Positions 41,256-64,000 of a stretch of 64,000 bases of DNA are shown here, in pieces. Both the position numbers and the translations under genes were made by a program. The DNA lies in NCBI GenBank assembly GCA_973895155.1, contig OZ316891.1, positions 4,371,508-4,435,507 on the forward strand, given 5' to 3'. Source of the DNA: Marsupella aquatica (lineage: Eukaryota > Plantae > Marchantiophyta). Each line of letters opens with the position of its first letter. Position 1 is the stretch's first letter. Below the pieces are notes generated by a model. The model saw only the letters and a program-made list of their open reading frames with translations, ran no database searches and was not told where the DNA came from.

Positions 41256-41470
41256 CCCATTGAGACCTGCATTCCAAACTTACACCAATGTCTCAGAAAG
41301 CAATATTTGTAAACATCAACCGTCGCACGATGCGTTGTGGTTGACGTACAATAACAAAGTAACCAACAAACTTCTCACGTATCAACCGTCGCAAGTTGCG
41401 TTGTGGTTGATAGGTTTGAACTCCCAATAGACGTAGCTCCCCTCCTTCGTGTCGTCAAACAAGAAGAAGG

Positions 41471-41490
41471 ATTCCCCGGCAGCGGCGCCA
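41471..41490 (-). other. Primer binding site, tRNA-Asp type (TGGCGCCGCTGCCGGGGAAT)
   Basis: Resembles the Athila-type PBS TGGCGCCGTTGCCGGGGA and lies 20 nt downstream of the 5' LTR end at 41511. Confidence 0.8.
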
Positions 41491-42621
41491 AAAACAAAAG
41501 ACCACACTTATGTCACTTGCCTCTCCAACGGTTAATACGTGCAAACCGCACTTTTCTTCGCTTAAACCGTTGGTATCGTATTACGGGGTCGTGGAGGGAC
41601 GCTATTTGGATTCTTTTCACACCAGGATGAGTATTTTGGTTTCCGCTCCCGGAAATGTAGGTTTTGATCAAGTCTACCGACTACCCTCACCCCACAGCTT
41701 TTGATCAAGTCCTGCCGACTACCCCACTACACCTTCACTCGGAGTCACCCAAAGAGTGCTGTCACCACCCCTACTCACAAGGCCGACTCAAACCAAGCAA
41801 GTTTCTTCAAATCATAGAACGGGAGAACACAATTCGGAAAGCGAAAAAGGGAGAAGGAACACACAACAAAAGCCCATCAAGTCAAATGTACAGATCCATA
41901 TCTCTTGGGAAAAACGATACACATTGCATGAGTAACCCGGCCTCCTGCCGTCTACTCAACTCCTGCCTCTCCGGACAATGAGTATGGCTCCCCCTCACTA
42001 CTCTGAACACGCTTTCAAACTCCTCAGGCTCCACTCTATCCCTCCTTGCTAACTTCACACTGAGTCCCCCTAACTACTTCGGGGCTATCCCCCTAAATAC
42101 TGAAAAATCACACCAAAGCACCCCTCACAGGGTCACAACGGTGGCGGCTACCCTAGCGGCGCCGCTAAAACCTTGCACTAAGAGAAATCCTTAAACTGAA
42201 GAGGAGCATGCGGCACACACATGCTGCTAAAACCCTAAACCCAAAACAAGGGGGCCGACGGTGCCTTCGACGGCGCCCCAACAGTACACGTGAACCCTGA
42301 AAGTGAGAGGCACCCCAAAATGGCCGAAACTAGGTGCCCTTCCAAGTGCACACCTGAGCTCACCCCTGGATAGCTCTTCTTTTCCTGCTTCCGAATCACT
42401 AAGTCGCTCCCTCAACGGACTTCAGACGCCTGAGTTATGGCCGTTTCCGTACCGCAAAAACATAAGTTCTCCAGGCCATAACTTGCTCATCCTGGCTCCG
42501 TTTGAGGAGCGCCGCCTCTTGTTGGAATCAGCTCCGCGAGCTCATCCCAACAAGCCCATGAGTGACCCCCCACTAAAATGTTGGAAATCTGGAGGCCGTA
42601 CACCCACGTCCGTACGCCTAT

Positions 42622-44478
42622 CTAATCCTCCTCTTCTTCTTCGCTCTCGGTGCCCGGACTTGTGCCCCGTGAGTGGTCCTCCTCCTCATCACTCACGGGA
42701 GTGAGTGCCACCGTACTTTTCTTCTTCTTCGACGGAGTACTCTTAGTGCTGCTGCTCCCGCGCTTCCTCAAAGCAGCCAAGGCCTGCCACGCCTTGATGT
42801 ACCCCTCACCAATTGTGTCCTTCCAGAGGGTAGCCTCTTCTCCGGACCGCAACTCCAACGGTAGAACTTGCCCCGTGGCCATGGGAGTCCCGGGGGTGAC
42901 AGACCTGGGTGGCATCCCCGTACTGACCTGAGCCTCCCGTAACGATTTCCGTACCTCCCGGAGCTTCTTCTCCAAGCTCTTACTCTTCTCCTGACTCTTC
43001 TTGGCTCCATCCAACAAGGGTCCATACTTCCCACTAACCTCCTTCACCACCATCTCGATAGCTTGGGAGATCACATCCGGGGAAAGTGTGGAGCCAGGTG
43101 TGCCGGGACTCTTCCGTTTCCCTAGACTCAGGGCCTCACTTCTCTTCGCTCGTGTCTCAAAGGCTGCCACCTGACTCCGTAGTGCTCCCACCTGGTTCCT
43201 CCACTCCATCACTTCTCCAGAATTTTGCTTCTCTTTGGCCAATGCTTGCCTCAACGCTCCTACTTCTTCTGCTTCCTTGGCCTTGGTGGACAAAGCTCCC
43301 TTCAAGTTGGTGATCTCTACGTGAGCTGCATTGATGTGCCTGACCTTCTCATGAATGGTCTGCTCCTTGGTCTTGATCACCTCCTTCAGTGACAGGATGC
43401 TCTGCTCTAACGTCTCTACTTTGACTGTGGCGTGCTTGAGAGACTCCCTCAATGCGTGGACTAGCTTGAGTCCCTCGTGGACTCCCTCTCTGAAATCCCG
43501 TAGCTCTGCCAAGTAAACATCCGGAATGTTGTATTCCAGAGGCTGTTTCGGATCTCCCACGAGTGATTCAAGCCACTCCAATGTGCAATCATCCTCCTGG
43601 TTCTCTTCTTCTCTATTATCCTCCCCACCAGCAGACAATGATTCCTCCGTGAGCTTCCCTAAAATGGTAGTGGCAATACTCCGGATCTCCGTGGTGAGAG
43701 ATGATCCCGTGTCTTCATGCCCCGGAGAACCAATCAACCCTTCTGCCCTGGCCAATACAAATGACCCCATCAAATGTACAGCCCCACCTGGTTTCACACT
43801 CCCGGGCTCAGCGGCCAATAGCTTCTTCAATCCGTAGCACCACCATCCGTACACATGGGCTGGGTAGTTCTTGATGTCCATAGCTACCACGAAATGCTCC
43901 TCATTCAGCACTCCGGATTGCACGTTGCCAAGAACCCGTTGATGCACCTTGGCCAGGAAGCCCTTATACTCAACATCCTTGACAGCAGAAAGAGGGATGG
44001 CGGTGGTGGAGGTAGGATTGGTCACCCAAGTGGCCACCATTTTCAACGTGAGTTCTCCCCTGATATTCCGAGGTGTGAATGAGAATTTCTGATTCTCAAG
44101 AAACAATAGCTTAGCCAACTCCACATGGGGCACTACACGTTTGAGACATTCAAAGTAGATTCCCTCCGTTCGGAACTCCATCCCGGCCTCAATGTCCCAG
44201 CTCTTCCCTGAAGGGATGGTAATCTCCACCTTCATGAATTCTGTAAGCCCGGTGGCTTGGAAAATGTTCCGACAATCCTCCATCACCTTGGTGGAGGTCT
44301 TGGGATAAATTCGACGAAAAATCTTCCTACCCACCGGTGAGGAACCCGCTGCCAATCCCGTGCTCATCATAACTTCTCTCTCTTCCCTTTCCCGTGTAAT
44401 CCGAGTCTCCACGTAGTCACGGTAAGCAGCCTTGTATCTCCGAATGCGTGACGCACTAAACTCTGGTTGATCTAGCAT
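42622..44478 (-). CDS. LTR-encoded accessory protein, 618 aa, 5' LTR copy
   Basis: Matches 31784..33640 except one V/I change (TTVLG vs TTILG). Confidence 0.85.
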   Translation of the reverse strand: MLDQPEFSASRIRRYKAAYRDYVETRITREREEREVMMSTGLAAGSSPVGRKIFRRIYPKTSTKVMEDCRNIFQATGLTEFMKVEITIPSGKSWDIEAGMEFRTEGIYFECLKRVVPHVELAKLLFLENQKFSFTPRNIRGELTLKMVATWVTNPTSTTAIPLSAVKDVEYKGFLAKVHQRVLGNVQSGVLNEEHFVVAMDIKNYPAHVYGWWCYGLKKLLAAEPGSVKPGGAVHLMGSFVLARAEGLIGSPGHEDTGSSLTTEIRSIATTILGKLTEESLSAGGEDNREEENQEDDCTLEWLESLVGDPKQPLEYNIPDVYLAELRDFREGVHEGLKLVHALRESLKHATVKVETLEQSILSLKEVIKTKEQTIHEKVRHINAAHVEITNLKGALSTKAKEAEEVGALRQALAKEKQNSGEVMEWRNQVGALRSQVAAFETRAKRSEALSLGKRKSPGTPGSTLSPDVISQAIEMVVKEVSGKYGPLLDGAKKSQEKSKSLEKKLREVRKSLREAQVSTGMPPRSVTPGTPMATGQVLPLELRSGEEATLWKDTIGEGYIKAWQALAALRKRGSSSTKSTPSKKKKSTVALTPVSDEEEDHSRGTSPGTESEEEEED

Positions 44479-44938
44479 CCATGCATCCCGAAATCAATTT
44501 CTCAATCACCAATCCCGTCACCCGTGGCAATGTCAATTCCCTGGCCCGAAACAGCCCCCGTAGCCCGATCACTTAAATTCTCTCAATTTCCCGTCACTAC
44601 TCCGTGCGGCCGCCACTAATGCCTGGAAGAATGACGCCAGCAAGCCCCACTAATCCACCATGAAAGAGAGAGCTTCAAAAATAATTAGAATCTGGAGAGA
44701 GCTTCCGGCAAGAGAGAGAAGAACCCCGTTTTTGCTTTCGGCAATGAGAGGGTCGTGCAAAAGGAAGAGGGAAAGAAAAAGGAAGGAAAAAAAAATAGAA
44801 CCGAAAAAACTCCTGGCGCCTTCGCCATGCGCCCCGGCCCATTTCTCGGGCCTTACCCTTGCGTCCTCCTGCGCGCGGCCCTATGCAGGGCGCGCGGCCA
44901 TTCCTCCCGGCTCGCGGGAGGCCCTTCAACTCCCCCCC

Positions 44939-45083
44939 GCTCGCGTGATCCTCCCAGCTCGCGGGAGGCCCTTTAACTCCCCCCCGCTCGCGTGATCCTC
45001 CCAGCTCGCGGGAGGCCCTTTAACTCCCCCCCGCTCGCGTGATCCTCCCAGCTCGCGGGAGGCCCTTTAACTCCCCCCCCCCC
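44939..45083. repeat. 47-bp GC-rich VNTR in the 5' LTR (3 units)
   Basis: Units start at 44939, 44986 and 45033. The missing 3 x 47 = 141 bp accounts exactly for the LTR length difference. Confidence 0.95.
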
Positions 45084-45589
45084 GCTCGCTTGCGCTCCTT
45101 CAGCTCGCGGAGCCTCATTAATTGCCCGGGCACGCAGCCCTATGGGCTCGCGAGGCAGCCCCTTCAGCTCGCGGAGCCCCATTAATCGCCCGGGCACGCA
45201 GCCCTATGGGCTCGCGAGGCAGCCCCTCTTTCTCTCGGACGGCCACTAATGGGACTCGCCCTCCTGAGGAGGGATTTATTTAAAAAAAAACCCCCCCCTC
45301 TCCTGACTTTGCAATGGGGGTCTCAACAATAGCTCTTGAAGCAAAACGGTAAGTCCTATGGGGCTGGTCCTGGCTAGTTTCAAGGTCCCAAAATATTTGC
45401 CCACTTAGGTCGCCGCAAATCTTAGAACTATTATGAGAGAAAGAATATAAAGTCACCTGGGGCATCATCAACCTATAATGACGGAATTAACTAAAAATTA
45501 AAAAATGGCTTATTTACATTGACTATTAACAAGGTATCGGCCTTTGCAACCAGTTATGTGTGACTTCCCGTGACGGGGTACCCGTCACA

Positions 45590-46200
45590 GGCCTCTTCTT
45601 TAGCAAGTTTTTAGTTTGCACCAGCCGGGCTGGGATCAAGTAGTACGAGAAGCTCTCGGTTAGTCATACAGTGACCCTTGTGTATATTCATGTTTCCTCA
45701 TGCCTAAGAGCTGAATAGAGTTGGCCTCACGGCTTAGTTCGCAGAACTTGTGTATGAGATGTACTGTTTGTATGGCAAGTGCATGGTATGACTCAGTCAG
45801 AATGAGTCATTTTGCTATTTGTGTGTCGCATTAACTTGTGTGAAGAGTGCCCACATCAACAGAAGGAAGGAAAGTAAGCAGGGGAGTGAGAGTTGGATGT
45901 GTCGAGCTGAGAGAGGTCTTAGCGGCTTAACCAAGCCTATTGGGGATCATTCCGGCGGCGGAATCCAAACATACCTAACAGGAAGACAGGGGAAGGCCTA
46001 TATTAGGCCGGCTACGTATCTCATGACCCGATGAAGGATCTGTCCAGTATATGTGTGTAAAATGTTAATAGTAGTAGTAGAAGGTTAGCAGCGTCCCATG
46101 CCGCTAAGCCGCGGAAACGGCCTCGCCAAGCACGAAACCTGCGGGAATCGGCTTGAGCTGGGGGGTTTCTTGGGTTTAGGGAGCCATGGGATGCACCACA
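45590..46200 (+). repeat. Remnant (3' 611 bp) of the family B 5' LTR
   Basis: Near-identical to 56431-57051. It starts at GGCCT (not TG) directly against the family A LTR end. Confidence 0.9.
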
Positions 46201-46204
46201 TTTT

Positions 46205-46222
46205 TGGCGCTAGATGGAGGGG
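46205..46222 (+). other. Primer binding site, tRNA-Asn type (TGGCGCTAGATGGAGGGG)
   Basis: Lies 4 nt (TTTT) after the LTR end and matches the complement of the plant tRNA-Asn(GTT) 3' end as I recall it (TGGCGCTAGAAGGAGGGG) with one mismatch. Confidence 0.75.
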
Positions 46223-46269
46223 GCATTTCTTAAGCCGTGAGATATGAAGTTAGAACGGAAGCATAGGTA

Positions 46270-49200
46270 ATGACTGACCTTACGCCGAGGGAAGAAAGAG
46301 TGATTCAACGGGAGAGAGCTCGACTGCAGCAGCTCGCCGGGTGGCATGATACACAGCGACTGAGAGGGGCAGAAAGAGCTGGTAGCTCCGAAACTGGAAG
46401 TGGCGTCGAAGAAGACATACCAGAAGAAGAGTCGGTAAGGAGAAGTGAGTCTCCAACCGACATGGGGGAACCAGAGGCACGGCCAGACGAGAGGCCAGGG
46501 ACCAGATTGAGCCAGCGGTCGCGCATACATTACAAGGCATTTCATGGGAGAGGAGATGAGGATCCGGACGAATGGTTGGATGATTTCGAGGGAACCGCTG
46601 CAGCAAATGGAGAATCGGCCATCAAGATGCAGATTCTTCCCGGCCTGTTCAAGGGTGAGGCTAGGCCTTGGTACAGAGCATTATATGTGGAAGATCAAGC
46701 CATCTGGGATATCTTCAAAACACTCTTTGTTAAGGAGTTTCGACCCATTGGAACTTCAGAACTAGCAGTGCTGAAGTTGGGACAACTTCGGTTCAAGGAG
46801 AACAAATCCTTCAGGAAGTTCTTGCAACGCTTTCAGAAACTGGTAAGACGTACAAAGACCAATGCATCTGAAGGTATGCAACTTCAATGGTTGGTGAATG
46901 CTTTGCCACAGAAGATGAGTTTTGCAATTAGGAAGGAGAACCCGGAGACTTTAGCCGAAGCAATTAAGGATATTCAATTATACATTAATGCAGATATCAC
47001 AAGCCGGAAGAAACAGCTTAAGTCTGAGAGTTCCTCATCAGAGGAGGGATCACCCCATAAGAAAAAAGATAAGAAGAAGAAACATTCCAAGAAGTCTAGA
47101 AGTGATAAGTCAAGCTCGGATAGTGGGAGTAGCAAGAGTGAGTCATCTTCTAGTTCTGAAGAAGAAAAAACTAGGAAAAGGAAGGGCAGAAGGAGAGGGA
47201 AGACGAAAGTCAAGATGGAGGCTAAGCCACCAGATAACATCGTAGCCCTTACCAAGCAACTTAAGGCTATCATTGCAGAGGTAAAACCAAAGAAGAAGGT
47301 AGTACAGGAGGATAGCTCTGTATGGTGTGCCTTATGTTATAAAACCGGACACCATAAAGATGCGTGTCCTAAGCTTAATACTAATCATGTTCGGCATGTG
47401 GCCGAGATCAGACCATGTCAGGGAGAAGTAGAGTACTTTTTGGGAGATGCCGCTGATAGTGTTTTCGGCATCAGTGAGACTGGAGCACGAGACCTATCCA
47501 ACAGACCTGCATCTCTGTGGTCAGGGTTAAGGAACAATCCAGGAGAGATGTATCCTCGGATTATTCAGAACCCGTCAGTACCTCCTAGGCCGAATGTGCA
47601 AAGATTTGCGGCGTGCTATAATTGTGGTCAACCTGGCCATTTTGCTAGAGAATGCCCGAATGCACGCAAACAGGGTGATGGACAACCAGCTCAGCTATGT
47701 ATGGGATGCCGACAGGAAGGTCATATGCTAGGGCAATGTCCTACTTGGTTGGCAGGCCTGGCCGCAAATCATAAGCTTTTGCCGATCAAGATCTTACCGC
47801 CAGGTACTACCCCCGGAGGAGTTCAAATCAACCACATCGAACTAGGATGGCAAGAGGATGCCGAGGCAGAGTTCGTACCATCTGATGATGAGGCCGAAGC
47901 CCTATCAACCTTCTCAGAGGAGGATTTAGATCATGATTGCTACCGGGTCTCTACTCGATCTACCAGAAGGAAGGAAAGGTGGGATGGGTTGGCCAAAAAT
48001 AAAGGGAAGGTTACGGAGGAAAGGATCGACTCTTCGTCAACATCAACAGAAGGAGAAGGGAGGGCTCCGGCAATACAGGTAAGCCATGAGCCCACCAGTG
48101 AAACCAATCCTTCACGAGATAGCGACTTCAATCGAGATCATCCTAAGTTGTTCTACCCCTCTGTTACGGCTAGTGTTAAGGAACAACTAAGAGAATTAGA
48201 AACCCTGGAGAATACCAAAGCCATTGCCAAGGATGTAAAACGAGCAAAAGCATTGTTTGCTTCGGAAGACCCAACAGCTGTGGAGACTAGCGTGGCAAAA
48301 CTGGCCGAATCCAAGACGGAAACACCACCAGAAGAGAAGCCGATTGTTCCCTATGACCTGGCTAAAGATGTACTAGAATCTAGAGTCTCGGCAACAGTAG
48401 GTCAACTATTGAAAAATAGCCCGTACTTCCGGAAGCAATTAAGGAAGGCTATTCTTGGCAAGCCGAGATTACCCAAGGTAGCAACCAGATCCGACGTACT
48501 AATGATAGAAGAAGATCAAGGAGCCCCAGCATTACCATTAATGATTCAAGGAGAATTATTACTACGGGTACCCATCGATGGAGGATCAGGGGTATGTATT
48601 ATGATTGATTCAACAGCAAAAGGGTGGGGTCTAACACCGGAGATGACTGGAAGAGTGTTGAACATGGCCAATGGATATCAGGTCATTCCGACGGGAGTGT
48701 TAACCGGCATCAAGACAGAGATAGGAGGTATCTTCTTTAGCATTAACTATGTAGTAATGAAGCCGGTAAATCCTACGTCATTCCGGCTATTGATTGGTAG
48801 GCCATGGCTGTACCTAGCCGAGGTAATAGAAGATTGGGGTAAAAAGCAGTTCACTTTCGGGACCCCCTCTATCACGGTATCCTGGGACACTAAGGATGAC
48901 CGTAGGAAAAGCATAAGGGAAGTAGATGGGTACGACAGTGGACTGGAGTCAGCCGATGAAGTACGTTGGTTAGAATGCCTCACTAACCTAACCGAAGAAG
49001 GTGTCTTTGGACCAGAGGTACCCCCCAGCGGATTATGGCAAGAACCAATGGAAGGTGACTTGGAAGAAGAAGACGAAGAGGTCGAGGACTGCTTTACAAT
49101 AGAATCCACCTTTTTAGCTGCAATTCCGGAGGAAGTAAAGGATGTAGACCAATTGGATGAAACGGCTAAGTGGGGAGCAATAGCAGGGACAGTGGATTTT

Positions 49201-52200
49201 CTGCAGGCGTTGTGGCAGAGCCGACGGGGTCCACAACGCCATCGATCATCGGCAAGGAATTAAATACCAAGGGATCGGCATACAAGCCGATTACGAGGGC
49301 AGAACAAATTGAGGCCCTATTAGAAGCCGAGAGAGCATAGCGGCCTAACTCTCAGGAGCAAGAGGTGGATGAGATGGACAGACACGATCTAGAGCCAAGG
49401 CAGGAAGGGGAGCCGACCACTAATTCAAAACCGAATAGACCGGTAAGGGGACAATCTATGGACACCAAGGAAGGGACCGACTCGGCTAGTCCAGCCGAGA
49501 TCCCAGTTTATGGAGGTATGAGATTAGAGAGACTGGAAGCTGAACTGGACCCGAATTTGAAGAAGCAGATTAATATGATCCAAGCACGGCAATATCGGAA
49601 GCTCGACTTAGGAGAGGGAAGAGAACTGAACTTAGGGAGAAACCTAGCACCTGAGCTCGAGAAAGAGATCAGTGACTTATTGATTGAATTTCAGGATGTG
49701 TTTGCATGGAGTCACCAAGATCTAAAGGGAGTAGATCCAACACTAGGGGAACATCGAATTGATCTCATGTTAGGAGCCAAATCATTTCGACAACCAATTC
49801 GAAGGATGAACCCGAAGTATTCCCTGCTGGTCAAAACAGAAATCGACAAACTAGTGGAAGCTGGATTCATCACTCCAGTCCTGCATTCAGACTGGGTGTC
49901 TCCAATTGTGATAGTTCCCAAGAAAGCTGGACCCGATGGTAAACCCAAGATCCGGGTTTGTCAGGATTACAGGAAGCTGAATGAAGCAACATTAAAAGAC
50001 CATTTTCCTTTACCGTTTACTGATATGGTACTAGACATGGTAGCCAGTCATGAACTATATTCATTCATGGATGGATACTCTGGTTATAACCAAATCAGGA
50101 TTCGGCAGGAAGACCAAATCAAGACGGCCTTCATCACGGAATGGGGGATCTATGTCTTCAATCGTATGCCGTTTGGACTCTGCAACGCACCAGCTATGTT
50201 CCAACGATTAATGGTGAACATTTTTCATGATTACTTGAGAAAGTTCATGGAAATCTTCATTGATGACTTTGCAGTATTCGGGAAGGCATCGAAACATGCT
50301 AAATACCTCAGGAAAACCTTCATGAGATGTAGAGAGGTGGGTCTCAAGTTACGCCCAGATAAATGTTTTTTTGCAGTAACCGAGGGGGTGCTACTAGGTC
50401 ACAAGGTATCAAGGAAGGGCATTGAGATTGACAAAGGTAAGCTAGCAGTATGGCTAGATATCATGCAACCTAAGAACATAAAGGATGTAAGATCCTTCTT
50501 GGGATGCATTGGTTACTATCGCCGGTTCATCAAGGATTTTGCCAAGCTGGCTTTACCATTAACCAATATGCTCAAGGCAGGAGCAGACTTCGAACCCACA
50601 CCCGAACGAGTCACAGCGGTGGTAGAATTGAAGCAGATGTTAGTAGAGGCCCCAGTCATGATAGCACCGGACTGGAACAAAGATTTTCATGTTTTTGTAG
50701 ATGTCTCAGGCTTCTGTATTGGCTCAGTACTAAGTTAGTTGGATGAGAAAGGAAGGGACCATCCCATATACTTCGCAAGCCGTCAGCTTGCCGATGCCAA
50801 ACGGAACTACTCTACCACGGAAAGAGAAGCATTAGGAGTCATTTATTCTTGTAAAAAGTTTAGGCATTATTTACTAGGGTACAAGGTAATCTTTCATACT
50901 GATCATGAAAGTTTGAAGTACCTAGTCAATAAGCCGGACCTTACAGGCAGAGTAGCAAGATGGATTTTGCTATTACAGGAGTTTGACTATGAGCTGAGGA
51001 TCAAGCCGGGAAAGTTACATGCCAATGCCGACTTCTTTTCAAGGATCACAGGTAAACCTGCCACGGATTGCATCGATGATCGATTCCCCGACGAGGAGCT
51101 ATTCGTTGTGGAAATAGCTGGTACATGGTACCCTAAGATTTTACAATTTCTCAGCACTTCCAGATTACAGCCAGGATTAAGCCGAGAGCAAGCCGCAGTC
51201 TTTGTGCGGAAGGTCAGACAGTATCAGTGCATTAAAGGCATACTGCACAAGCATGGAATCAACGGCACGATTCAAAGGTGTTTGGAAAAGAGAGAGGTAA
51301 AACGAGTCCTACGGGCCATGCATGGAGAGGAGGCCGGAGGACATTTTGCCCCAGTAACCACGTCTAAGAAGATATTAAATGCCGGTTACTGGTGGCCCAC
51401 CTTGCACAAAGATGTCTATCAGTTTATCAAACAATGCGATCCTTGTCAACGAGCGGGAGGACCAAGGGCGTCCACCAGGCATCCACTGCACCCTATTCTA
51501 CCTCTGGCACCATTCGAGAAGTGGGGTATTGATTACATTGGACCTCTGAAACCACTGACCCACCCTCGACGGAACAAGTACATAATCCTGGCTACGGATT
51601 ATGCAACTAAATGGGTAGAGGCCAGACCAACAACGAAGGATGATGCAATTACTACGGCTAGATTCATGTATGAGCAGATCTTCACCAGGTATGGAGCACC
51701 CCTAGAATTAGTTAGTGATAGAGGAACCCATTTTTTGAATGATATAATTAGTCGTTTAATTGAGCAGTATTTAGTTAAACATAGGCCTACTACTCCCTAC
51801 CATCCAAAGGCAAACGGGTTGACAGAACGAGCAAACGGGATCATAGGAAAGATATTGAACAAGACAGTAGCTCAGAACAAACTCGATTGGGATGATAAAT
51901 TGTTTGCTGCTGTTTTTGCTTACAATCTTGCCTATAAATCCACTACTGGTCATACACCCTTCTTCTTAACCTTTGGACAAGAAGCCCTGGTACCCATGCA
52001 ACTTGAGATACCGACATTTCAAGTTACAATTGAGGAAAGAGCCTCAGCGGAGGAGAGCCTAAAGGAGCGAGAATATAGGTTAGAAGCTTTAGAGGAAGCG
52101 AGAATGATTTCAGCCGAGAGAGTAGAATATAGACAGAATATCATGAAGCAGCAGTATGATAAAAGGTTAAAAGTAGTTAGTATTCATACCGGTGATCTTG

Positions 52201-52436
52201 TGCTACTTTATGACAGTAGGTATAGTAGGTTTCCAGGAAAGCTTTACACTCGCTGGTTAGGACCCTTTAGAGTAACCATGATGTTCCCCAATGGCTCCGT
52301 ACAATTGGCCAACATTACGGGAGAGGTATATCCAGTTCGCATCCATTATGACCGCCTCAAGAAATACTATATGGACGAAGATGAAGTTGTTCGCGAGGAC
52401 GCTTCACAATTAAGTGGGGAGCTATGTGATGCCTAG
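46270..52436 (+). pseudogene. Gag-Pol of family B, disrupted (frame change near 49170-49263, in-frame TAG near 49338 and at 50736-50738)
   Basis: ORF 46270..49263 holds Gag, 3 CCHC and PR IDGGSG. ORF 49365..50738 holds RT FMDGYSGYNQI and FIDDF. ORF 50739..52436 holds RH and IN. All are collinear with the 2132-aa ORF, and SVLS*LDEKG corresponds to AVLSQLDDDG. Confidence 0.92.
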
Positions 52437-55400
52437 ATAGGAATCACTCGGCTGGTTAAGTGGGTAAAGCAGGAAGGCACCCTAGGAACACCTTAGTATA
52501 GTGACAAAACAAGGAAAATATAAACAATTAGGGGCAACCATGGAACCCGGGCAGAGGCCGGAGGTAAGGCTAAGGGTGAAAACCCGATTAGGGTTAGGGC
52601 GCGTTAAGCGTCGGCGGCTAGGAAGGATCAACGGGAAGAAGGACCGGCAGAGGAGAGGGGTAAGGAGCGCTTGCAGGAGATGGTGGCTCATTTGCGAGCA
52701 CGAACTAGGCAGACGACTACGGGAGGCCAACTACTGTCAGCTGCTTAGGCAAGCACTCGGGGAGAGAGTAGATACCGACGATCAACCTAAGGAGGGTATG
52801 AGCAACGTCAATCAAGCGGCACATTTCTGGGGATGCCTGTTCGAACGGGCAACTGAGTACATCAAGACTTACGAGGACGAGGAGTCAGAAAGGGCAGCTC
52901 GAGAACGGCAGGAGCTCGCTCGATTGTGGGAGCTGCAGAAGACGGCTTTCTTAGGAGGCGAACTCATCAAGGACGAGTTCCTGTGGACGCCTACTTCCAA
53001 TCAACTCGACGATCTTCTGTTTTGCAAAGACAGCGTCGTCGGCATCCGAGAGGCCATCAAGAACTGCAACGACATACACTGGGAATTAAAGGGTAGCACG
53101 GAAAGGTGGACCCAGGCAACGGTGCTAGGAGAAACCTCCACGGCAGCAGAGATGAAGAGGAAGGGAGCCGTCAACGATGAAGCCACCCCGGCAAAAAGAA
53201 CGAGGTCGGCGGCACCAAAGAAGCCAGCCGAGCAGCAGAGCAGGAGGCAGGGAGAAGCCGAAGAGGAGGAGGTCGATCCCATCAAGGCCATTCCAACCAG
53301 GGATGACACCTGGAAGGGCTGGGCGGCAACCCTACCGGTGGAGGTGCAACTACATTTTGCACGAGAGGAGGATGCATGCTTTACGGCCATGCAGACCAAG
53401 AAGTACCAAGGCTTCATGGCCGGATCCGGCTTGGAGGCCTTTGTAAGATTACCATGGCTGAAGCCGGAGGTACTGGAGTCAGACCTATTAGAATTCGTGG
53501 GGTCATGGGAACCCGAGACCAATTGCACGAGGATATATGGGAAGGATTTCTATCTTACTCCCAAGGTAATTGCCGAAGTGTTTGGCCTGCCGATAGGCAA
53601 TAAGACCAAAGTTGATACCAGGAAGACCTTGCCTGACAAGGAGTTCCGGTCGTTCCCCGGGCCATCAACGAAGAATGGCTTCTTCCGGAACACCTGCACC
53701 AACCCGCACATAGGAGAGATGATCGACTTCTTGCGGGTGACCATGCATTGTAACTTACCGAGGGCAGAGATCGGCAAGGCACAGGTCTATCTGGCAGAAA
53801 GGCCAGACCCAAGCCGGGACTACAACGGGTACCTCCTCAACCAATTGAAGAAGATCTTAAAGGAGGAGCAGCAGGTAATCGGCATGGGGAGCGTGTCGCG
53901 GCTTGGCTATCACATGCCGCTGTTGTGCCGGTATGCCAGAAGTCAGACTTTTGCCCCGGTACTTCCCCTGCAGGTAAGGGCACCCGAGGAAGCTCCAACG
54001 CCGAGGCCGTTGGCTGAGAAGCCTCAACCACCTGTTAGTCCTACGATCGAGCAGGTGTTTAGGCCCAGGAAGGAAGACTTGCCAATGCAGCAACCAGGCA
54101 TGCAGAGTCTGCTGAAACTACTGGAGAAAGAAAAGAAATCGGCATCGGCAACAACAACGGCAACGGCAACAATGCAGGACACTACTACAGAGGTAGGCCT
54201 ACACCGGCTCACAAGAGAAAACCCCTTTGCTGGAGACAAGGAGAGAATCAGGCCGGAATCCAAGCCAGGTGTTCGAATGTACGTGGGAACCTCAAGCTCC
54301 GAATCTGAGGCAGAATTGCCTGAAGCTCCTACCGACGAAGAGGAGAGGGAGAAGCCGGACATCCAAGAGGTAGAGGAGGCAGTGGAGGACTGCAGCCATG
54401 ATAATTCCGGCTATGGGTCGGACCATCACGTTCCAGGAGTAAGGACCTGTGGCCGGTTTGTCCCCACACTTCCAAGGGTAGTGCGAGGGGACCCCAACCA
54501 GCAGAGTAGCCCTGAGTCTCCCCCACCAGATGTTGCTCCCCCGAGCTTCGACGGCATAAAACAGACGGTGCAGGAATTTCAGGAGCGAATCAAGCAGGAG
54601 GAAGAGGTCGCCCTGGCTAAGGAAAAGGATTTACCAGGAGGAGATTGGCCGGAGGACATCAGGCGGCTAGCCGAAAAAGGAAGCAAACCTCTAGCCACGA
54701 TTGAAGAGATCCGCAGGACGGCTTGGGAGCAGAGGCCACGATGGGCGATGCCGATCACTTCTACTTACTCCACCTACGCTAAGAATAGAGCCATGGAGTA
54801 TGGTGAGATGTGTGGGGAACTTGCGCTCGGCATCTTTGGAGAGGAGTTGGAGATAGGACCCTTTTTCCATAGGGAGCAGTTGGAGAAGCACCAATTAGAA
54901 GAAGCGGTGGCTTTAGAGAGAAGCAAGAAGGACGAGGTCATTCGGCGGCTTAGGAGGATGGGAGCCGAGATTGAAGATCTAAGGGCGGCCAAGAAAGCCC
55001 AAGATGAACTGCGGATTAAACGACATGAGCTGAACATCATGCAGGGGCAGTTGGACACCGCGCAGGCTGATAATCAGAATATCAAGGATAAACTGACTCA
55101 GACGCAGGAAGAGTTGGCCGACACGATCAAAGAGAGGGAGAAGTGGAAGCAAGAACTGAAGAATACAGAGGAGGCCCACATAACAGCCAACAGCCGGGCC
55201 ATGGCGGAGACCCAAAGAAAGGAATGGGCGTTGAAAGGGGAGCTCGAGAAAATCCGCGGAGCCCTTGAGCAGAAGGAGGTCGAGTTAGGGAAATCCTATC
55301 AAGGGATTATGGCGCTGCAGCAGGAGCTTGCGTCCCTGACGGCCAGCTTCAAGGCCGACCTAAGGGAGAAGGACGAGATGCTCGAACAGACTTACGCCAA

Positions 55401-57051
55401 GATGAACCAGATGGAGTCTGTCATCATTGCAGAGCTCGACAAGGAGCTAAGAGCAACCCAGGAGGAGAGGGCTACCTTGAAGAAGGAATTGGAGGAAGCC
55501 CACAGGGAGCAGGAGGAGGCCAAAAACGAGCTGGAGGGGGCACGTAAGGACCTGGATGAAACCCAAGAGGAGTTGGAGGAAATCACGAGGAAGATGGAGA
55601 ACCTACAGCGGCGGGCCGACAACCAAACAGAGCGGCTGAAGAAACAAGCCGCAGTATTTAAATGCTTAGCTGCAGCAGGTCCATCTCCCGTTGGGACAAA
55701 CCAGTTACCAGGGGTGGTAATTGCCGAAGGACAAGCCGCGTCAACTGCACCAGTGCCGGAAGTAAGTGGGAAGGGGAAGGGACCAGCTGCCGAGCCACCA
55801 ACGAAGAAGAAGCGGAAACCTCCAGGGTCAAGGAGTAATACGACTTCACAGGCCGTGGTGATCAAGGAGGTAGACCCAGCACCGACCCCAGACAGGGTCA
55901 CGGCTAAGGATCCAACTACCCTAGGGGAAGGGGAGGCCGAAGCCGTGGGAGTGGCTGAGGCCGAAGCCGTGGGTATTGCCGAGGCCGGTGTCGAGGTTGA
56001 AGCCGAAGGTGGACCCAGTCAGGCCGATGGAGAGTTGACTCGGTCAAGGGCAGGTAATCTGTCAGTAGGCGGGCCAACGGCAGTGGCTGAGGAGGAAGTG
56101 TTGGGGGCGTCCATTGAGGATCCACCACCGGTGTCATGACGGTGCAAGGGCGCCGTTCCTTTTAGGGAGGGCGGACGTGGAGGGAGGAGGCGTGAGTGGG
56201 CAGGGCGGGCGCGGATCTCCACGTTTAGGATTAGGATCAGAACCAGGAGCGGCCCTGACACTTAGCTTAGTGGGATTGCGGTCCCACTGGTAGGAGCAAC
56301 ACTTGTGCTCCTGCCTTGCTGTACATAGGTAGATTCGGGCAAGTAGATTACTGTCAGGTAGATTAGGCTTACGATGCAAAGAATGGCGGATCCACTACCA
56401 GGATAAGTACCTGGGCAGCGGGGAGCTCAGGGCCTCTTCTTTAGCAAGTTTTTAGTTTGCACCAGCCGGGCTGGGATCAAGTAGTACGAGAAGCTCTCGG
56501 TTAGTCATACAGTGACCCTTGTGTATATTCATGTTTCCTCATGCCTAAGAGCTGAATAGAGTTGGCCTCACGGCTTAGTTCGCAGAACTTGTGTATGAGA
56601 TGTACTGTTTGTATGGCAAGTGCATGGTATGACTCAGTCAGAATGAGTCATTTTGCTATTTGTGTGTCGCATTAACTTGTGTGAAGAGTGCCCACATCAA
56701 CAGAAGGAAGGAAAGTAAGCAGGGGAGTGAGAGTTGGATGTGTCGAGCTGAGAGAGGTCTTAGCGGCTTAACCAAGCCTATTGGGGATCATTCCGGCGGC
56801 GGAATCCAAACATACCTAACAGGAAGACAGGGGAAGACAGGGGAAGGCCTATATTAGGCCGGCTACGTATCTCATGACCCGATGAAGGATCTGTCCAGTA
56901 TATGTGTGTAAAATGTTAATAGTAGTAGTAGAAGGTTAGCAGCGTCCCATGCCGCTAAGCCGCGGAAACGGCCTCGCCAAGCACGAAACCTGCGGGAATC
57001 GGCTTGAGCTGGGGGGTTTCTTGGGTTTAGGGAGCCATGGGACGCACCACA
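52425..57051 (+). repeat. Inferred 3' LTR of family B (4627 bp) containing the accessory ORF
   Basis: Starts TGTGAT right after GGGGAGCTA, at the same position in the pol C-terminus (ELCD) as the proven LTR start of family A. Only the last 621 bp can be confirmed as repeated in this window. Confidence 0.7.
52501..56139 (+). CDS. Accessory protein of family B (open frame 1212 codons, likely ATG at 52798 giving 1113 aa): plant-transposon domain, Pro/acidic linker, long coiled coil, NLS-like KKKRK
   Basis: Uninterrupted 3.6-kb frame containing SGLEAFVRLPW...LLEFVGSW...IYGKDFYLTPKVIAEVFGLP and a heptad region at about 54880-55650. Homologs lie at 21680 and 63018. ATG 52798 aligns with ATG 21680. 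Confidence 0.85.
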   Translation: MTKQGKYKQLGATMEPGQRPEVRLRVKTRLGLGRVKRRRLGRINGKKDRQRRGVRSACRRWWLICEHELGRRLREANYCQLLRQALGERVDTDDQPKEGMSNVNQAAHFWGCLFERATEYIKTYEDEESERAARERQELARLWELQKTAFLGGELIKDEFLWTPTSNQLDDLLFCKDSVVGIREAIKNCNDIHWELKGSTERWTQATVLGETSTAAEMKRKGAVNDEATPAKRTRSAAPKKPAEQQSRRQGEAEEEEVDPIKAIPTRDDTWKGWAATLPVEVQLHFAREEDACFTAMQTKKYQGFMAGSGLEAFVRLPWLKPEVLESDLLEFVGSWEPETNCTRIYGKDFYLTPKVIAEVFGLPIGNKTKVDTRKTLPDKEFRSFPGPSTKNGFFRNTCTNPHIGEMIDFLRVTMHCNLPRAEIGKAQVYLAERPDPSRDYNGYLLNQLKKILKEEQQVIGMGSVSRLGYHMPLLCRYARSQTFAPVLPLQVRAPEEAPTPRPLAEKPQPPVSPTIEQVFRPRKEDLPMQQPGMQSLLKLLEKEKKSASATTTATATMQDTTTEVGLHRLTRENPFAGDKERIRPESKPGVRMYVGTSSSESEAELPEAPTDEEEREKPDIQEVEEAVEDCSHDNSGYGSDHHVPGVRTCGRFVPTLPRVVRGDPNQQSSPESPPPDVAPPSFDGIKQTVQEFQERIKQEEEVALAKEKDLPGGDWPEDIRRLAEKGSKPLATIEEIRRTAWEQRPRWAMPITSTYSTYAKNRAMEYGEMCGELALGIFGEELEIGPFFHREQLEKHQLEEAVALERSKKDEVIRRLRRMGAEIEDLRAAKKAQDELRIKRHELNIMQGQLDTAQADNQNIKDKLTQTQEELADTIKEREKWKQELKNTEEAHITANSRAMAETQRKEWALKGELEKIRGALEQKEVELGKSYQGIMALQQELASLTASFKADLREKDEMLEQTYAKMNQMESVIIAELDKELRATQEERATLKKELEEAHREQEEAKNELEGARKDLDETQEELEEITRKMENLQRRADNQTERLKKQAAVFKCLAAAGPSPVGTNQLPGVVIAEGQAASTAPVPEVSGKGKGPAAEPPTKKKRKPPGSRSNTTSQAVVIKEVDPAPTPDRVTAKDPTTLGEGEAEAVGVAEAEAVGIAEAGVEVEAEGGPSQADGELTRSRAGNLSVGGPTAVAEEEVLGASIEDPPPVS

Positions 57052-59065
57052 ACTCCATACTACTACAATGAATTTTTGCAATCTCTTCATATGACTTTGA
57101 AATGTGTTTACTTCTTGTAGCCCAAATTTTGTAATTGTTGTATTCAATGCCCTAATTTCTGAATTGTGTGTCCACTGCAGGAACTACTCATTAACCATTG
57201 TCTAGATCCCATGCACTGTGAGAAGAATCTTGCACACAACATTGTGCACACTATCATTGGGACCAAGGACACTCCTTCTGTGCGAGAAGACCTGAAGCTC
57301 TTACAGGTGCGCCAACACCTATGGCTTGTACCCAATCCAGCTCCCAAGCGTAACGATGACAAATTGTTGATGCCCCCAGCCCCATATTGCCTGAGCAAGA
57401 AGGAAAGAACAAGGTTCTTGGAGGTGTTATTGACCTTAAAAGGACCCACTGGTTTTTCAAGTTCTTTGGCAAAGTGTGTTACAAATCCAAGAAACTCTCT
57501 GGGTTGAAATCACATGATTTCCACCAACTCATGCAACAGATTCTCCCTCTGGCAACAATGGGATTACTTGATGAAGGGGTTTGCTTGGCCATAGCTGGGA
57601 TGAGCAATATCTATCGCCAGATATGTACGAAGGTGTGGGACCCTTCAATGTATGAGAATTTGATGATGGATGTTGCATTCCCTCTCTGCATTGTGGAAAT
57701 CCATTTTCCACCAAGCTTCTTTGATGTCATGACCCATTTAATGATTCACCTAGTGGAGGAATTAGACTTGTGTGGCCCAGTTACAGGCAGATGGATGTAC
57801 CCAATAGAGAGGAACCTGAAGGTATTGAAGGGTTATGTACGAAACAAGGCACGTCCAGAGGCTTCTATGGCTGAAGGCTATGTTTTAGATGAGTCTTTGG
57901 GATTCCTTTCTGAATACATGATTGATGCTAAGGGAGAGGGAAAACAAACCCGGGAGTTGGAGGAGGATGCTGGCGTTGCAAGCATTGTCTTGGAAGGGGC
58001 TGCAAAGGAGATAACTTTGAATTGGTCTGAAATGATGGCCATGCATCATTATATATTGGAGAATGAAGAGACAGTGGCTCCATGGTATGTCAGGTATGTA
58101 AACCCTGTACCATATGGATCATAAGTATGCTGCCCCATTGTGTTTGTATATTCATGGTGGATCATGCACTAATGTCTTGAGTGTTGTTGTTGCCATGTAG
58201 GATATATGATGCTACCAATGAGACTGTTACCAAACGAAGAGTGGATTTCCGGAAGGAATGGATGAGGAAGCCTGCCAATCGAAGAAAACCAGTGGAATTT
58301 CCCCTTGACTGCCAAGAATTGCCACCTTTCAGGGAATGGTTTCAAACATTAGTCAATACCCATAATTTTGAGACAGAGTCTGAGCGGTCATTACTATCTG
58401 CATACTCCACACCACCTAGTTTGAAGGCACGACTGTATAGGGCATGTAGAGCCTATGGGCATCACTGGAGGACTATTCCATCCTTGGGGTGTTTGAGTGA
58501 TTGTGATTCTGGTGCATTCAACACTTTTGATTCTGGGATGGCTTCGACGTTCACTGAGAAGCGGGTGGACAGGTCTGGCGCAACTAGAGAAGAATCTGTA
58601 CAGTATGTAGGGGCCTTGACAGATATCTTAGTACTAAATTACGACAGCTTGAGGAAAGAGGTGATTCTTTTCAAAGGGAAATGGGCAGATCCATCATGGA
58701 CTCCTAAATCCTCTGCCAGTATGAGGTATTCTGAGTCTGGTCTTTGGCAGGTGAATTTCCATAGAGAATTGGGTGTGTCCAAGAAAATGGATTACGTTTT
58801 CCCAAAGCAAGTGGAGCAAGTTTTCTTCCACCCCAATGAGAAGGGGATAGCATGGAGAACAATCCTCCACAAAGAATCCAGGTCCACAAGGGTGTTAGGT
58901 GATTACACAGATGTTGATTTCCATGCTACAATGGAAAACAATGCCAAATTACACATTGAATTGGCTAAAGCCTGTAGGACTAGAGCAAATCCAGGACCAA
59001 GTACTGGTCCCAAACGAGGTAGAGATGCAGAGGGATCTGCAAGAAAGGGTAGGCCTAAGCAGTGA
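57052..59065 (+). pseudogene. CACTA (En/Spm) Tnp2/TnpD transposase, 3' part, frameshifted, 5' part missing
   Basis: HCLDPMHCEKN, LSGLKSHDFHQLMQQILP, FPPSFFDVMTHLMIHLVEE, GPVTGRWMYPIER, NKARPEASMAEGY and YVFPKQVEQVFF (DUF4218/DUF4216-type). There is a frame change near 57490 and probable introns. Confidence 0.9.
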
Positions 59066-59149
59066 ATAGGTTTTAGGTGTGTGAAGTCCATAGATGGACT
59101 ACATGTATGGACTATATATGAAATCAGACTAATGTTTTGCCCATTTGTG

Positions 59150-62110
59150 CAGTTGGTGAATGCAGCCTGTGAAAGGAAGATTGCAGGGGTTGTCACATCC
59201 TGTGAATGCTTATGAGAAGGCCCGAAAGCGGAACATAGAGCATAATGTCAGCATTATGCGTGATCTAGGACTGGGGCCAGATTGCATGCTGATGTGTGTG
59301 TTAAAATGTTTGTTGCAAATTTGATTCAGTAGATATATGGAGTTGTCAGGTTCATGTTCTGTTTTCATATTCCAGATTGGTCTCATACTAGTATGGAACC
59401 TGTACATAAGTACCATTATTACTGTGTTGTAGATTCTGCTTGCATGTATGTTTGATCTGCATTGGTGTATGTTGATGATTGCTTTGTTCCTTAGAGACCC
59501 AACCACACATGTACAACGACAGAGAGAAAAGCCTGCATTGGTGAAAGGTACTTCAACTGGAACATTGCCAAAGAGGAGGAGCTCTAGACTATCACAAGTT
59601 ACGGAGGTGAACATGGCAGAGTCTGGTGATGATGGCTATGCCAGTGCTGGGTATGACACTGAGGATTCTGACATTGGAGGGTCAGAACCTAAGAGTGAAC
59701 AACAGGTAATGCTTGAACTTCATCATCCTAAACCCTAAATCCTTGTCCTTGTTTCAAAGTATTTGTTAATATGCCTACGTTGTCCATGATGTAGGTACAG
59801 AAACAAAATTGTGGTCCTAAGAAGACTGGGCCTGGTAGAGGTGGGCTGGTGAGATGTTGGAAAGACCCAAACACTTGACTGTTATATGAAAGTGAGTGGA
59901 TTGTACTGATATACCTTTTCAGTGTGTTTGGAAGTTGATATTCTACATTTTCCTAAAATTCATTGAAGTGCTTGGCGGTGTGTGTTTGTTTAGTGGTTCC
60001 ATCAACATCTGAAGGCAGATCAGGTCAATTTGACGTACTATATTCCAGAGGATCTTCAGGTAATACAAATCTGCTCGTCATGCATATGCAAGTGCATTTG
60101 CTCAACTTTTCAATGCACATATTTTCTGAGTGAAAGCATGTGTGTGCATTGCAGGCGGGGCCTCTGAGATGCGCAGGGAATGAAGGCATGCTAAGAAGAT
60201 GTTTGATAATGCTGCCAAAGTACGAAGGAATCAGGGAGATTTGCCCAAACACATTAAAGTGAGTATTGTACTTTTTTTGAATGTAGATTTAGACATAGAT
60301 CCTCTCTGTTTTTGTGTGTATAAAACCTGGACTATGCATAAATTCCAGAGTTATGAATTGACATTGCACGTGAAATGCAGATTTATGACAATGATATTGA
60401 TGATTCTGATCCCAACAAACAGTACTGGTTGGAGGAACTTCGTGGCAATGTACTCAGAATCTTTGATGTATCAAAGCCAAAATGGACTGATCATCCACGA
60501 GTTCATATAACCAGTGTGTGGAAGAACATGGCAGCTGAGTGGAAGTACGTGGGTGGGGAATTTATTGACAACAAATTCCAGAGTCATTGTCGTGGCATAT
60601 TGAAGAGAGAGCGCCATAAATGCATGTTTACTGGAAGAAAGTTTGCAATGAGGATCCAACCAAACCTGGGCCATCTGGTGTTGATCCAAAGAAATGGGCA
60701 GCTTTGGTATCTCATTTCACCAGTCCAGCATTGATATCTTTGAGTAAACAGATGACTGATAAAAGAGCATGAGTGCAAGATACCAATCACTTTGGTAGAG
60801 GAGGGCATGCTGCAGCAGCAAAGAGAATGGTAAGCTGTCTATATCATTTTCACTATCAATTCTGTCTTGTTTGTGAATCTTGATAAAAACAGACTTTGAG
60901 TTTCTCATTCATTGTGTGTTTGAACAGAAGCAAAAGAGAGGATCAAGCCCAGGTATATCTGACCTGAAAGAAAACCTTGGTAGTCAGGGTTCATTGCCAA
61001 AGGTGACAATGAGCCCATCATTGGCAAGTGCAGAAGGTCAGACTGGTAGTTTTTTGGTGAGCAAAGGTGAGTCATTGGCAAGTGGGGAGGGTAAAAGTGC
61101 TAGCTTACTGGGGCAAGGATACAGACATGGATCAGCTGTGAGTATTGCCATTCCAATCTGATTTGTACATCATTTTCCATTTGATAGAGTGTTGTGTCGT
61201 TTGTTAGTTTGACAATGAGAATGTTGTGTTGGTTTGTGGTTCATTTACAGACCCCACATTCAAAAGAAGAGATCACTACCATTGGGGCTGTCAAATTGGA
61301 TGTCGATGAGTTGAAAGGCATTGTGAAGGAGTTGACAAACATGATGACTATATGGATGGCACATCACTCCAGTAATGCACAAGTTCCAACATTTGTTCCT
61401 AGTCACAGTAAGTTGACTACAGCTACCAAAGAAGGTAGTAGAAAACGATCTCTTACTTTTTCAGGTGATAATGGAGGTAAAATTCTCTATCATCTATTCA
61501 CTGTCCATTCAATGTAATTATTGTGGTGTATATATGTCATTGTATGTTTATAATGTTCTTGCATGTTCTAGTGTGATTATATGTTGCTGGTGTATACATG
61601 TTTGTTTATGCATTTCTCTTGTGTGTGTTTTATGACAGCATCTTTAGGGGAGCCTCCAGTGTCGCAAGGAAGACCAACTGACACAGCTAACAGTACTCTG
61701 AAGCAAACTGAATTGGAAGTGAACCTTTTGCCATCTAAGTTGCCCAAAGAAGCCATTTTAGATGCCTTTCAGTTGCCAGAGGATAAGTCGACTCAGTTGA
61801 CACCAAATGTAACCCCAGAATCATCTGAGTTGCCAAAAGAAACTCCTGTTCCAAGTGAGCATGATGACACTCCATCAACTAGAAAGGGAAAGAAGAAAAG
61901 GAAGAAAGGATCTTCAGCAAATGCATCACCTGCATAGAAAAAACCAATGCAGTCTCCTAACCCCATTGCAAAGGTAAATGTGTGTTTGATTTGAGTGTTC
62001 TTCTATCTTTCAATTTCTGTTTATTGCATTTTTAACAAAATGTGTTGTTCACAGTTTGCAAGAGGAGATTTGGTGAAGATGAAGAGCGTTGTGGACAATT
62101 CCATGATAGT
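59150..62110 (+). pseudogene. Probable second, intron-rich gene of the CACTA element (TnpA-like / unknown), interrupted at 62111
   Basis: Short exon-like blocks (AYEKARKRNIEHN, WLEELRGNVLRIFDVSKPKW, GILKRERHK, VKLDVDELKGIVKEL) are separated by T-rich GT-AG intron-like stretches directly downstream of the transposase. Confidence 0.5.
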
Positions 62111-64000
62111 TGTGGCACGTTTCCCAAGACCTCTAACCCCAAGAACTACCCTCAACCGATCGTAAACCACTTGTTTATGTCCGTCCTCTTGCCTTATGGC
62201 AGCTATTCGGCTTGGAAATGTGATACTCTCCTTCGATCCACACTTACCGGACCGATTCTTTCACTGGGCTTGTGAATTGTGCACAACTGAGACACCTAAT
62301 TCCTCTTTAACTTCTTCAGGTATATTTGTATTCCGCCCCCGGAATGTACCTCTACAACTTAATTTCTTAAGCCGGCTGAAGGTCTTTTTCAGACTGACTC
62401 AACCCACACTTCACCGACTAGCACTCTCAATCCTCACTTTTCTCTCAGAGTTTGATTGGGCAGTCTCCAATCAGGACAATGCAATTGTATTTTGCTCAAC
62501 AGTTCACCCTATCTGACTTAAATCGATCAAGCAACAGATATCATAACACTCAATTTCTTGGATGGCAAGAATCTGCGAACTATGCAACGAGGCCAACTCA
62601 ATTCAAACAATTGCTCAAAAATCCAAGGGAACTGGTGGTTTACTGATACCCTGCGGTCTAGATTTAGCCGAGAGCTTCCTATGCTCACAACAATACAGAT
62701 TAACACTAAAGCCTTGACTAAGAAAAAGCCCTCGAAGCCACGCTACCCAGGTTTTTATCCTTGCAGCGCGTCCAGGGACAAACAACGGAAATCCTAACCA
62801 CCACACACGGCCTTCCACCGCGATAATCCTACCAAAAAACTATCACCTCAAAACTTGAATAGCCCGGAACCCTGTGTGAACCGAGCATCTACTACTACCT
62901 AAGCCGACAGGGCGCTACTTGCCCTGTCCCATCCTACAACGGCCGCGCCCTTCTGGCCCAAGCCCTTCTCCTACCGCCACGTCCTCCTTCCAACCGATGA
63001 CTGGCCCTCCTTAATTGTCAGATGACCGGGTGTAAGTCCGAATCTTCCGACTCTGCACCTTCTCCTGCCATCGGCCCCAGCCTGACCCCTTCGGCTTCCT
63101 CGACTTTGGGTTCTGGTTTGTCGGCCCCGGCCTCGGCCTCAGTCTCGGCATCCGCATCCTCCTGGGAAACGGCTTGGAGAGCCTTTGCCTTAACTTCCTC
63201 AATCCAAGCCTTTTCCCCGATGTGCTCGGTCTCGATAACCCATGGTTTCACGTTCTGTGCGTCCATAGAAGCAGTACCATCATCTAAACCTGTTACTGCA
63301 GCTCCAAGTTGATCCACAGTACTTACCTCTACCACTGCTGCCTTCAGGGCCACAGTACCACAAATGTGAGCGGCCATACTCTCAACTTCCTCCGGAGTGG
63401 CTTTAAGGGCCTTAACTTTATTATCGCTTGGCCCCATGAACGTCTTTGCCAAGTTTGCCACCAACTGCATGGCTTTGCCCTCAGTCACGCTTGTCAACAG
63501 GGAGCTTGGCTTCGGCTTCGGCTTCACTATATTTCTACCTACCATACTACTGACGGGAAGCCTTTCAGTTGGTGACCCATATCCCGCTTTGGCATACTTC
63601 TTTAATTTCTGCGTTTGATTGTCGGCACGCCTCTGCAACCCGATCATCTTATCCTTGGCCTCCTCCAGTTCCTGAGATACGTCTTCAACTTCATCGTTAA
63701 GCCATAGTATTTCGGCCCTGGCCATCTTCAACTCCTCATTTAAGATCTGCACGATCTCCAACTCTTGCTTATCTCCAGCTGCTTTCAAGGAGTCGTTGAT
63801 ACCTTTCAGTTTTGTAACCTCGTTCGTCCATGCCTGCTTTGTCCTGGTTAGCTCCTCCTGAAGCTCCTTGCGTATCTGTTGAACCCGGTTTAGGTGATCA
63901 TTGGCCACTGTGCACATGGCGTCATCATGCTTCTCACGCATGGCCTCCAACCGGTCGAGTAACTTATCATACTTCCTTTGGGCTTATGCCAAGGCCTTTG
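62111..64000 (-). mobile_element. 3' portion of an LTR of a further family related to B, continuing beyond the window
   Basis: TGTGGCACGTTTCCCAAGACCTCTAACCCCAAGAACTACCCTCAACCGAT resembles the reverse complement of the family B LTR end (TGTGGTGCGTCCCATGGCTCCCTAAACCCAAGAAACCCCCCAGCTCAAGCCGAT). A homologous ORF ends about 0.9 kb inside, as in family B. Confidence 0.75.
63018..63950 (-). pseudogene. C-terminal coiled-coil part of the accessory ORF homologous to 52501..56139
   Basis: EDVSQELEEAKDKMIGLQRRADNQTQKLKK aligns with DETQEELEEITRKMENLQRRADNQTERLKK. An in-frame TAA lies just upstream near 63985. Confidence 0.75.

Follow-up and report, generated by a model that had tools for sequence, protein, structure and literature searches.

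What is the long open reading frame (ORF) that follows pol in a retrotransposon of the liverwort Marsupella aquatica, and does it lie in the internal region of the element or inside its long terminal repeat (LTR)? The element, here called family B, is found in a stretch of 64,000 nucleotides of contig OZ316891.1 (assembly GCA_973895155.1, positions 4,371,508 to 4,435,507 of the forward strand), hereafter the window, which is a nest of plant transposons. All features of family B given below are on the forward strand. The segment 52425-57051 is very probably a 4.6-kb LTR with the accessory gene inside, as the original prediction had proposed, and four kinds of evidence agree on this: the homology of its upstream junction to that of a second family (A), a terminal inverted repeat, the arrangement of a sister family (C), and the depth and breakpoints of contigs from four public runs.

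The polypurine tract (PPT) of family B (52407-52424) is followed at 52425 by TGTGAT, which pairs with ATCAC in a terminal hairpin (52425-52447) of a form common to families A and C. The motif TGTGA...TCAC occurs four times in the 64 kb (21126, 52425, and 34892 and 45589, the two family A starts), against a mean of 0.57 in shuffled sequences of which 2 of 200 reached four, a figure that flatters, since the pattern was set after viewing families A, B and C. A 23-nt pattern covering the proven PPT-LTR junction of family A through TGTGA recurs once elsewhere in the window, at 52407-52429, against 0 occurrences expected by chance; the PPT pattern gave 0 matches in metagenome scans. The putative 3' LTR that opens here measures 4627 bp (TGTGATGC...GCACCACA), and TGTGATGC at 52425 agrees with the inverted LTR end in 7 of 8 bases; the sole other site with as good a match (53921) is not preceded by a purine tract. 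The accessory frame (52486-56139) is followed by 912 bp up to the LTR end, GCACCACA at 57051, and the last 621 bp of this tail (56431-57051) differ from the remnant of the 5' LTR (its 3' 611 bp, 45590-46200, cut on the left side by family A) by one substitution and one 10-bp duplication. The tract with its hairpin at the end of pol, the 3.6-kb frame for a protein of about 1100-1200 aa and the 0.9-kb tail had all been described in the original prediction and were recovered here. Moreover, family C is a 5' or solo LTR containing the gene: the flank of its start at 21126 is not a PPT, there is no pol match in 1-21125, and a domain of the B type follows 1.5 kb inside. An ORF is accordingly found behind the PPT in family B, in the 5' or solo LTR of family C and in both LTRs of family A. 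In the contigs of the four runs, the median depth over the accessory ORF exceeded that over gag-pol by factors of 3.4, 4.1, 2.6 and 3.0; one contig of run X6, after 106 foreign letters, starts to match exactly at 52425, one of run X4 begins at 52425, and other families have 52388-52433 in common with family B and then diverge. In run X3, the summed depth over this PPT core exceeds that of the surrounding family B about 200-fold, with many different sequences after TGTGA, so that many families share the PPT-TGTGA junction.

Several observations weigh against an LTR of this length. A pair of B LTRs is not seen end to end, and the gene is not directly seen in a family B 5' LTR. Summed contig depth is not equal to copy number, no clean depth step appears at the 10-bp scale around 52425, five internal bins of X3 owe part of their depth to other families, and the foreign flank of the X6 contig ends in a purine run. 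In addition, the ratio of tail to ORF depth is 1.4, 0.9 and 1.3 but 3.0 in X4, and a purine-rich tract lies behind the ORF stop in both family B and a related family D, where it begins CAATTAAGGAGGG. These last two points would suit a short LTR of 0.6-0.9 kb primed at the tract behind the ORF stop, which would make the ORF an internal 3' extra ORF and the 52407 tract an upstream or relic PPT; the 5' remnant indeed matches 621 bp only, and published extra ORFs sit in the internal region. Such an arrangement is nevertheless improbable, as the remnant stops exactly at the terminal CA of family A and its short length was therefore fixed by the family A insertion. Moreover, neither of the two TG starts that follow a purine run in 56140-56430 agrees with the LTR end, the tail/ORF depth is below 1.5 in three of the four runs, and in family C the domain comes after an LTR-type start whose flank is foreign. 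Family A lacks a target-site duplication and borders family C on its other side, so the missing part of the family B 5' LTR disappeared either when two A copies recombined or through misassembly. The CAATTAAGGAGGG tract of family D is PPT-like with no TG after it, and is possibly the relic of an older, shorter LTR.

The accessory frame comprises 1217 codons from stop to stop, encoding 1199 aa from the ATG at 52540 or 1113 aa from that at 52798. Given the base composition, a frame of this length has a chance probability of about 1e-23, and stops abound in the other five frames; the ORF is almost certainly a real gene under selection. Among the 40 listed of 1079 contig differences, nine fall in the ORF, which is too few for dN/dS; several of them occur in this copy alone. 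No RNA data set was among the public runs listed as holding the sequence, which is not informative on expression. A TATAAA at 52519-52524, position +95 of the LTR, is a candidate promoter of the gene by pattern match, with a TATAAG at +95 in family C; an alignment of the promoter-region DNA of families A, B and C revealed nothing conserved beyond TGTGA, and the DNA around the TATA box could not be aligned. If this box is used, the ATG at 52798 is the likelier start, because that at 52540 is merely 16 bases behind it; comparison of the N-termini of B and C with their relatives, which might fix the start codon, gave no significant homology. A second pattern match, TATATT at 56850-56855, 200 bp before the LTR end, is a candidate promoter for the genomic RNA.

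More than half of the accessory protein is coiled coil or low-complexity sequence. A heptad scan predicts a long coiled coil at residues ~780-1047 (54877-55680), for which Pfam gave only a weak coiled-coil match and which is 45% identical over 60 aa to the family D protein, and a motif resembling a nuclear localisation signal (NLS), PTKKKRKPP, lies at 55801-55827 by pattern match. Upstream of these is a conserved globular domain of ~210 aa (53320-53946). A search with this domain gave 20 matches, of which one helicase-repeat protein (P0020) was dropped as spurious, leaving 19 relatives; the domain profile included 18 of the 20 rows (P0011 and P0018 were left out). Among the 19 clusters of relatives looked up, four have an organism name, all from the liverwort Calypogeia fissa and annotated as unnamed host proteins. 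Neither the domain nor its relatives had any Pfam match at E <= 1, Athila ORF1, Transposase_32, the plant mobile domain (PMD) and DUF1985 included. The Atlas leads of the domain are PF03078 and PF20167, and in fold searches VANC was the top match, covering the whole domain at a sequence identity of 6-12%. None of the 26 Foldseek rows obtained with the family B model was meaningful, a sequence search of the PDB gave only weak hemerythrin rows, a word-index protein search confirmed 0 of 7980 candidates for residues 1-560 and 2 of 7995 for alignment A1, and 0 of 49 matches to the domain pattern in metagenome scans were confirmed. From the relatives, the profile match, the fold searches and the Atlas leads, the domain probably has a fold of the VANC/PMD/Athila-ORF1 type, a lead of moderate strength; by score the protein is outside every Pfam family and is not a VANC by origin.

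Such a fold suggests that the protein could be an anti-silencing or activating factor, an assignment with roughly even chances. VANC opposes the silencing of VANDAL elements (PMC5735166). A less likely alternative is that the same fold, encoded in the same LTR, serves another step, such as integration targeting, nuclear import of the pre-integration complex, RNA export or particle structure. A fold match proves no function, the large share of coiled coil and low complexity would also suit such a role, and nuclear import and regulation are both open options for plant extra ORFs (PMC7264820). Contigs also join the LTR end 57051 to 53921, 54488 and 56206, which suggests that family B inserted into its own LTRs, copies inside copies, and this too would suit the alternative. 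A regulatory role is favored by the solved relative and the studied PMD relatives, which are DNA-bound chromatin regulators, and by the position of the gene in the LTR, behind a candidate promoter of its own, suited to a factor made ahead of the genomic RNA. No tandem motif array that would be an obvious target was found in the family B LTR. An Env-like protein aiding cell-to-cell spread would match a sense ORF downstream of pol, as in plant env-like ORFs (PMC7264820), and the long heptad region, but is most improbable: the highest 19-residue hydropathy is 1.11, indicating no membrane segment of the kind expected of Env, the motifs are NLS-like, and the fold leads indicate a DNA-binding domain.

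Taken as a whole, the best explanation, which we hold with about even confidence, is a long coding LTR whose gene would specify a VANC-like nuclear DNA-binding factor acting on the element's own LTRs. During retroelement replication, priming at the PPT copies the sequence behind it into both LTRs. With plus-strand priming at the PPT that ends pol, everything from 52425 would be copied into both LTRs in each round, and the whole gene would be left behind in solo LTRs. Its transcription would start from the promoter at the 5' end of the LTR (the TATA at +95) and end in the LTR's own 3' part, and the genomic RNA would start near the LTR 3' end. The protein may oligomerise through its coiled coil, enter the nucleus, bind motifs in related LTRs and oppose silencing by DNA methylation or Polycomb in trans, and solo LTRs could also supply it in trans.

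As for the element itself, family B is an abundant non-chromovirus Ty3/gypsy family. Its Pfam domains have the order GAG-PR-RT-RH-INT (gag, protease, reverse transcriptase, RNase H, integrase), its pol is 65% identical to that of family A, and it has TG...CA LTRs (the 5' one only as the 611-bp remnant), a primer binding site and a PPT. No chromodomain was found behind the integrase (no Pfam match at E <= 0.1), following the lineage definition in PMC6317226. The Pfam search of family B also gave no match to a second, archaeal-type RNase H (aRH), a trait of Tat elements; Tat lineages without aRH exist (PMC10508981). The primer binding site (TGGCGC..., 46205-46222) comes four T after the LTR end, which contigs of two runs join to 46201. 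No tRNA gene was found in the window, and an Rfam search of 45500-57200 gave 0 matches. The gag-protease frame has 998 codons (46267-49263; Pfam Retrotrans_gag and zf-CCHC, the protease motif by alignment with family A), and the RT-RNase H-integrase frame (49170-52436; RVT_1, RT_RNaseH, Integrase_H2C2, rve) contains two in-frame stops at 49338 and 50736. Given an LTR divergence of 0.16%, this copy is young, and it is disabled by two point changes.

The original prediction had contrasted the open accessory ORF with at least three lesions in gag-pol and raised the possibility of a non-autonomous subfamily that retains the accessory gene while gag-pol decays. The ORF is open and the two stops are real, which would fit such a subfamily, as would the excess of ORF over gag-pol depth, which deletion derivatives could also yield, and the X6 contig, which could derive from an element with a different interior. 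It is very unlikely all the same. Both stops are private to this copy, since in all four runs no less than 98.9% of the summed contig depth reads another letter at these positions, and they are thus not shared among copies. Moreover, 60% of the positions at which a single transition creates a stop lie in gag-pol, and the probability that both stops land there and not in the ORF is 0.36. The third break, between protease and RT, is common to copies and bears frameshift signals.

The gag and pol frames overlap only at 49170-49263, where the -1 frame is open from 49170 and a G GAU UUU heptamer lies in phase with gag. Behind a -1 slippery heptamer the usual spacer is 5-9 nt, and the candidate programmed -1 frameshift site here (49194-49240) has a 5-nt spacer and a 10-bp stem (49206-49215 / 49231-49240). 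The fold downstream of G GAU UUU is the most stable among four candidate heptamers, and its stem has a z of -3.0, reached by one of 200 shuffles. Gap-free contigs span the frame change in X3 (48816-49580) and X4 (49052-49326, depth 4072). As it is present in contigs of two other runs and coincides with a slippery site and a hairpin, the frame change is probably not a lesion; an in-phase heptamer, a spacer, a stable downstream structure, a -1 overlap and occurrence in several copies make it a candidate shift site on sequence grounds. Family B is thus probably autonomous, RT-RH-INT being reached by a putative -1 shift after the protease. Family A has a single 2140-codon frame, unlike the protease-RT break of family B. 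In the available part of a review (PMC5009743), G_GAU_UUU is given as a shift site of pea enation mosaic virus, a plant virus, MMTV (mouse mammary tumour virus) also frameshifts between protease and pol, and only +1 arrangements are named for plant elements as of a 2003 survey, which gives the candidate -1 shift an interest of its own.

The neighbouring elements are in various states. Family A, also Ty3/gypsy (30673-45589, reverse strand), has two LTRs of 4220 and 4079 bp with 2 mismatches in 4079 aligned bases and a 623-codon frame in each; ahead of this frame are GC-rich tandem repeats, present in unequal copy number in the two LTRs. It has no target-site duplication (GGTGG at 30668-30672 and GGCCT at 45590-45594), the left flank being family C and the right one family B; near-identical LTRs with such flanks indicate that two A copies recombined, or that the assembly joined them. 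The original prediction had given families A and B the same architecture, which is true of the position of the gene. No homology was detected between the family A ORF and the B domain (the profile score is within shuffles, rank 4 of 502), and weak Atlas leads (0.79-0.81) point from the A ORF to the same families as those of the B domain. Family C (21126-30672, forward strand; start TGTGAC..GTCAC) is decayed, cut by family A and split by a Ty1/copia element inserted in its ORF (23167-30204, reverse strand; 332-bp LTRs 97.3% alike, duplication GGGAG). Its B-type domain (22672-23166, profile E 1e-34) contains four stops in the 165 codons read, all TAG. When the remainder of family C and the tail of family A were compared with the B tail, 19 and 23 of 200 shuffles, respectively, scored as well. 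Family D (62111-64000, reverse strand) is an LTR end related to that of B. It includes 321 codons from the C-terminal part of a related accessory frame, which stops 907 bp short of the LTR end, and the family D tail aligns to that of B with a score of 162 (27.6 +/- 3.4 for shuffles). Families B and D are inserted in the same CACTA-type DNA transposon (57052-62110; DUF4218, DUF4216). The rest of the window includes a tandem array of ~61-bp units ~96% alike (6348-6964), a YUCCA-like flavin monooxygenase exon (9796-10491, forward strand) with closest relatives at 78% and 71% and named ones at no more than 57% among 120 matches listed, a fragment of an SNF2-related domain (13338-13640, reverse strand), and a long inverted arrangement, foldback- or MITE-like (miniature inverted-repeat transposable element), with short tandem units on both arms (16865-18727).

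What extra ORFs do in plant LTR retrotransposons has long been an open question, and in the literature covered sequence-specific anti-silencing is established for VANDAL DNA transposons only. With a VANC-like domain in an LTR, the protein and its likely target would share one 4.6-kb unit, so that the function is directly testable. If this is true, solo LTRs, usually counted as dead ends, stay protein-coding with a likely self-activating gene, and LTR finders with short length limits as well as gene annotators would misread such families, as the four Calypogeia fissa relatives may illustrate. Searching the literature, which left most subscription papers outside coverage, we found no description of a protein-coding gene located in the LTR of a plant retrotransposon, and the available parts of two papers on liverworts and Tat elements (PMC12885004, PMC10508981) mention no LTR genes.

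Among known systems, Athila ORF1 (PF03078), Transposase_32 (PF20167), the PMD of Ogre (PF10536) and TRP28 of Retand (PF04195) resemble the B gene in being extra non-Env genes of non-chromoviruses, and extra ORFs of the Athila/Ogre/Retand type also combine a globular domain with a coiled coil. The published genes occupy internal positions, either ahead of gag or between pol and the 3' LTR, and often run antisense, whereas the B gene is behind the PPT, in sense, and has no Pfam match. With VANC21 (VANDAL21, MuDR), its top fold match, and the MAIN/MAIL1 PMD proteins, the B protein has in common a domain plus coiled coil and the coding by a transposon; VANC, described as dicot-specific (PMC13547354), is encoded by VANDAL/MuDR DNA transposons, whereas the B protein belongs to an LTR retrotransposon and the resemblance is one of predicted fold. 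The length of the B LTR, 4-5 kb, is within the range known from Ogre and Retrosat2/RIRE3 (3-6.5 kb), whose long LTRs are treated as non-coding with the extra ORF between the 5' LTR and gag, whereas the B gene is inside the LTR. The closest layout is that of MMTV sag and related betaretroviral LTR genes, which lie mostly inside U3, are copied to both LTRs and are kept in solo LTRs (PMC4667437). MMTV is a mammalian retrovirus and its sag has an immune function; family B differs further in having gag and protease in one frame. No homology between sag and the B protein is expected. Finally, with somewhat less than even odds, a VANC-like anti-silencing gene may have been relocated to the LTR in a Ty3/gypsy clade of seedless plants as a full expression cassette, with thousands of solo LTRs serving as dispersed genes that sustain the activity of the family in trans. 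The gene would then be a relative of VANC, PMD and Athila ORF1 outside flowering plants, all belonging to one old counter-silencing family, and the combination of an LTR gene with a protease-RT frameshift would have converged on the layout of MMTV.
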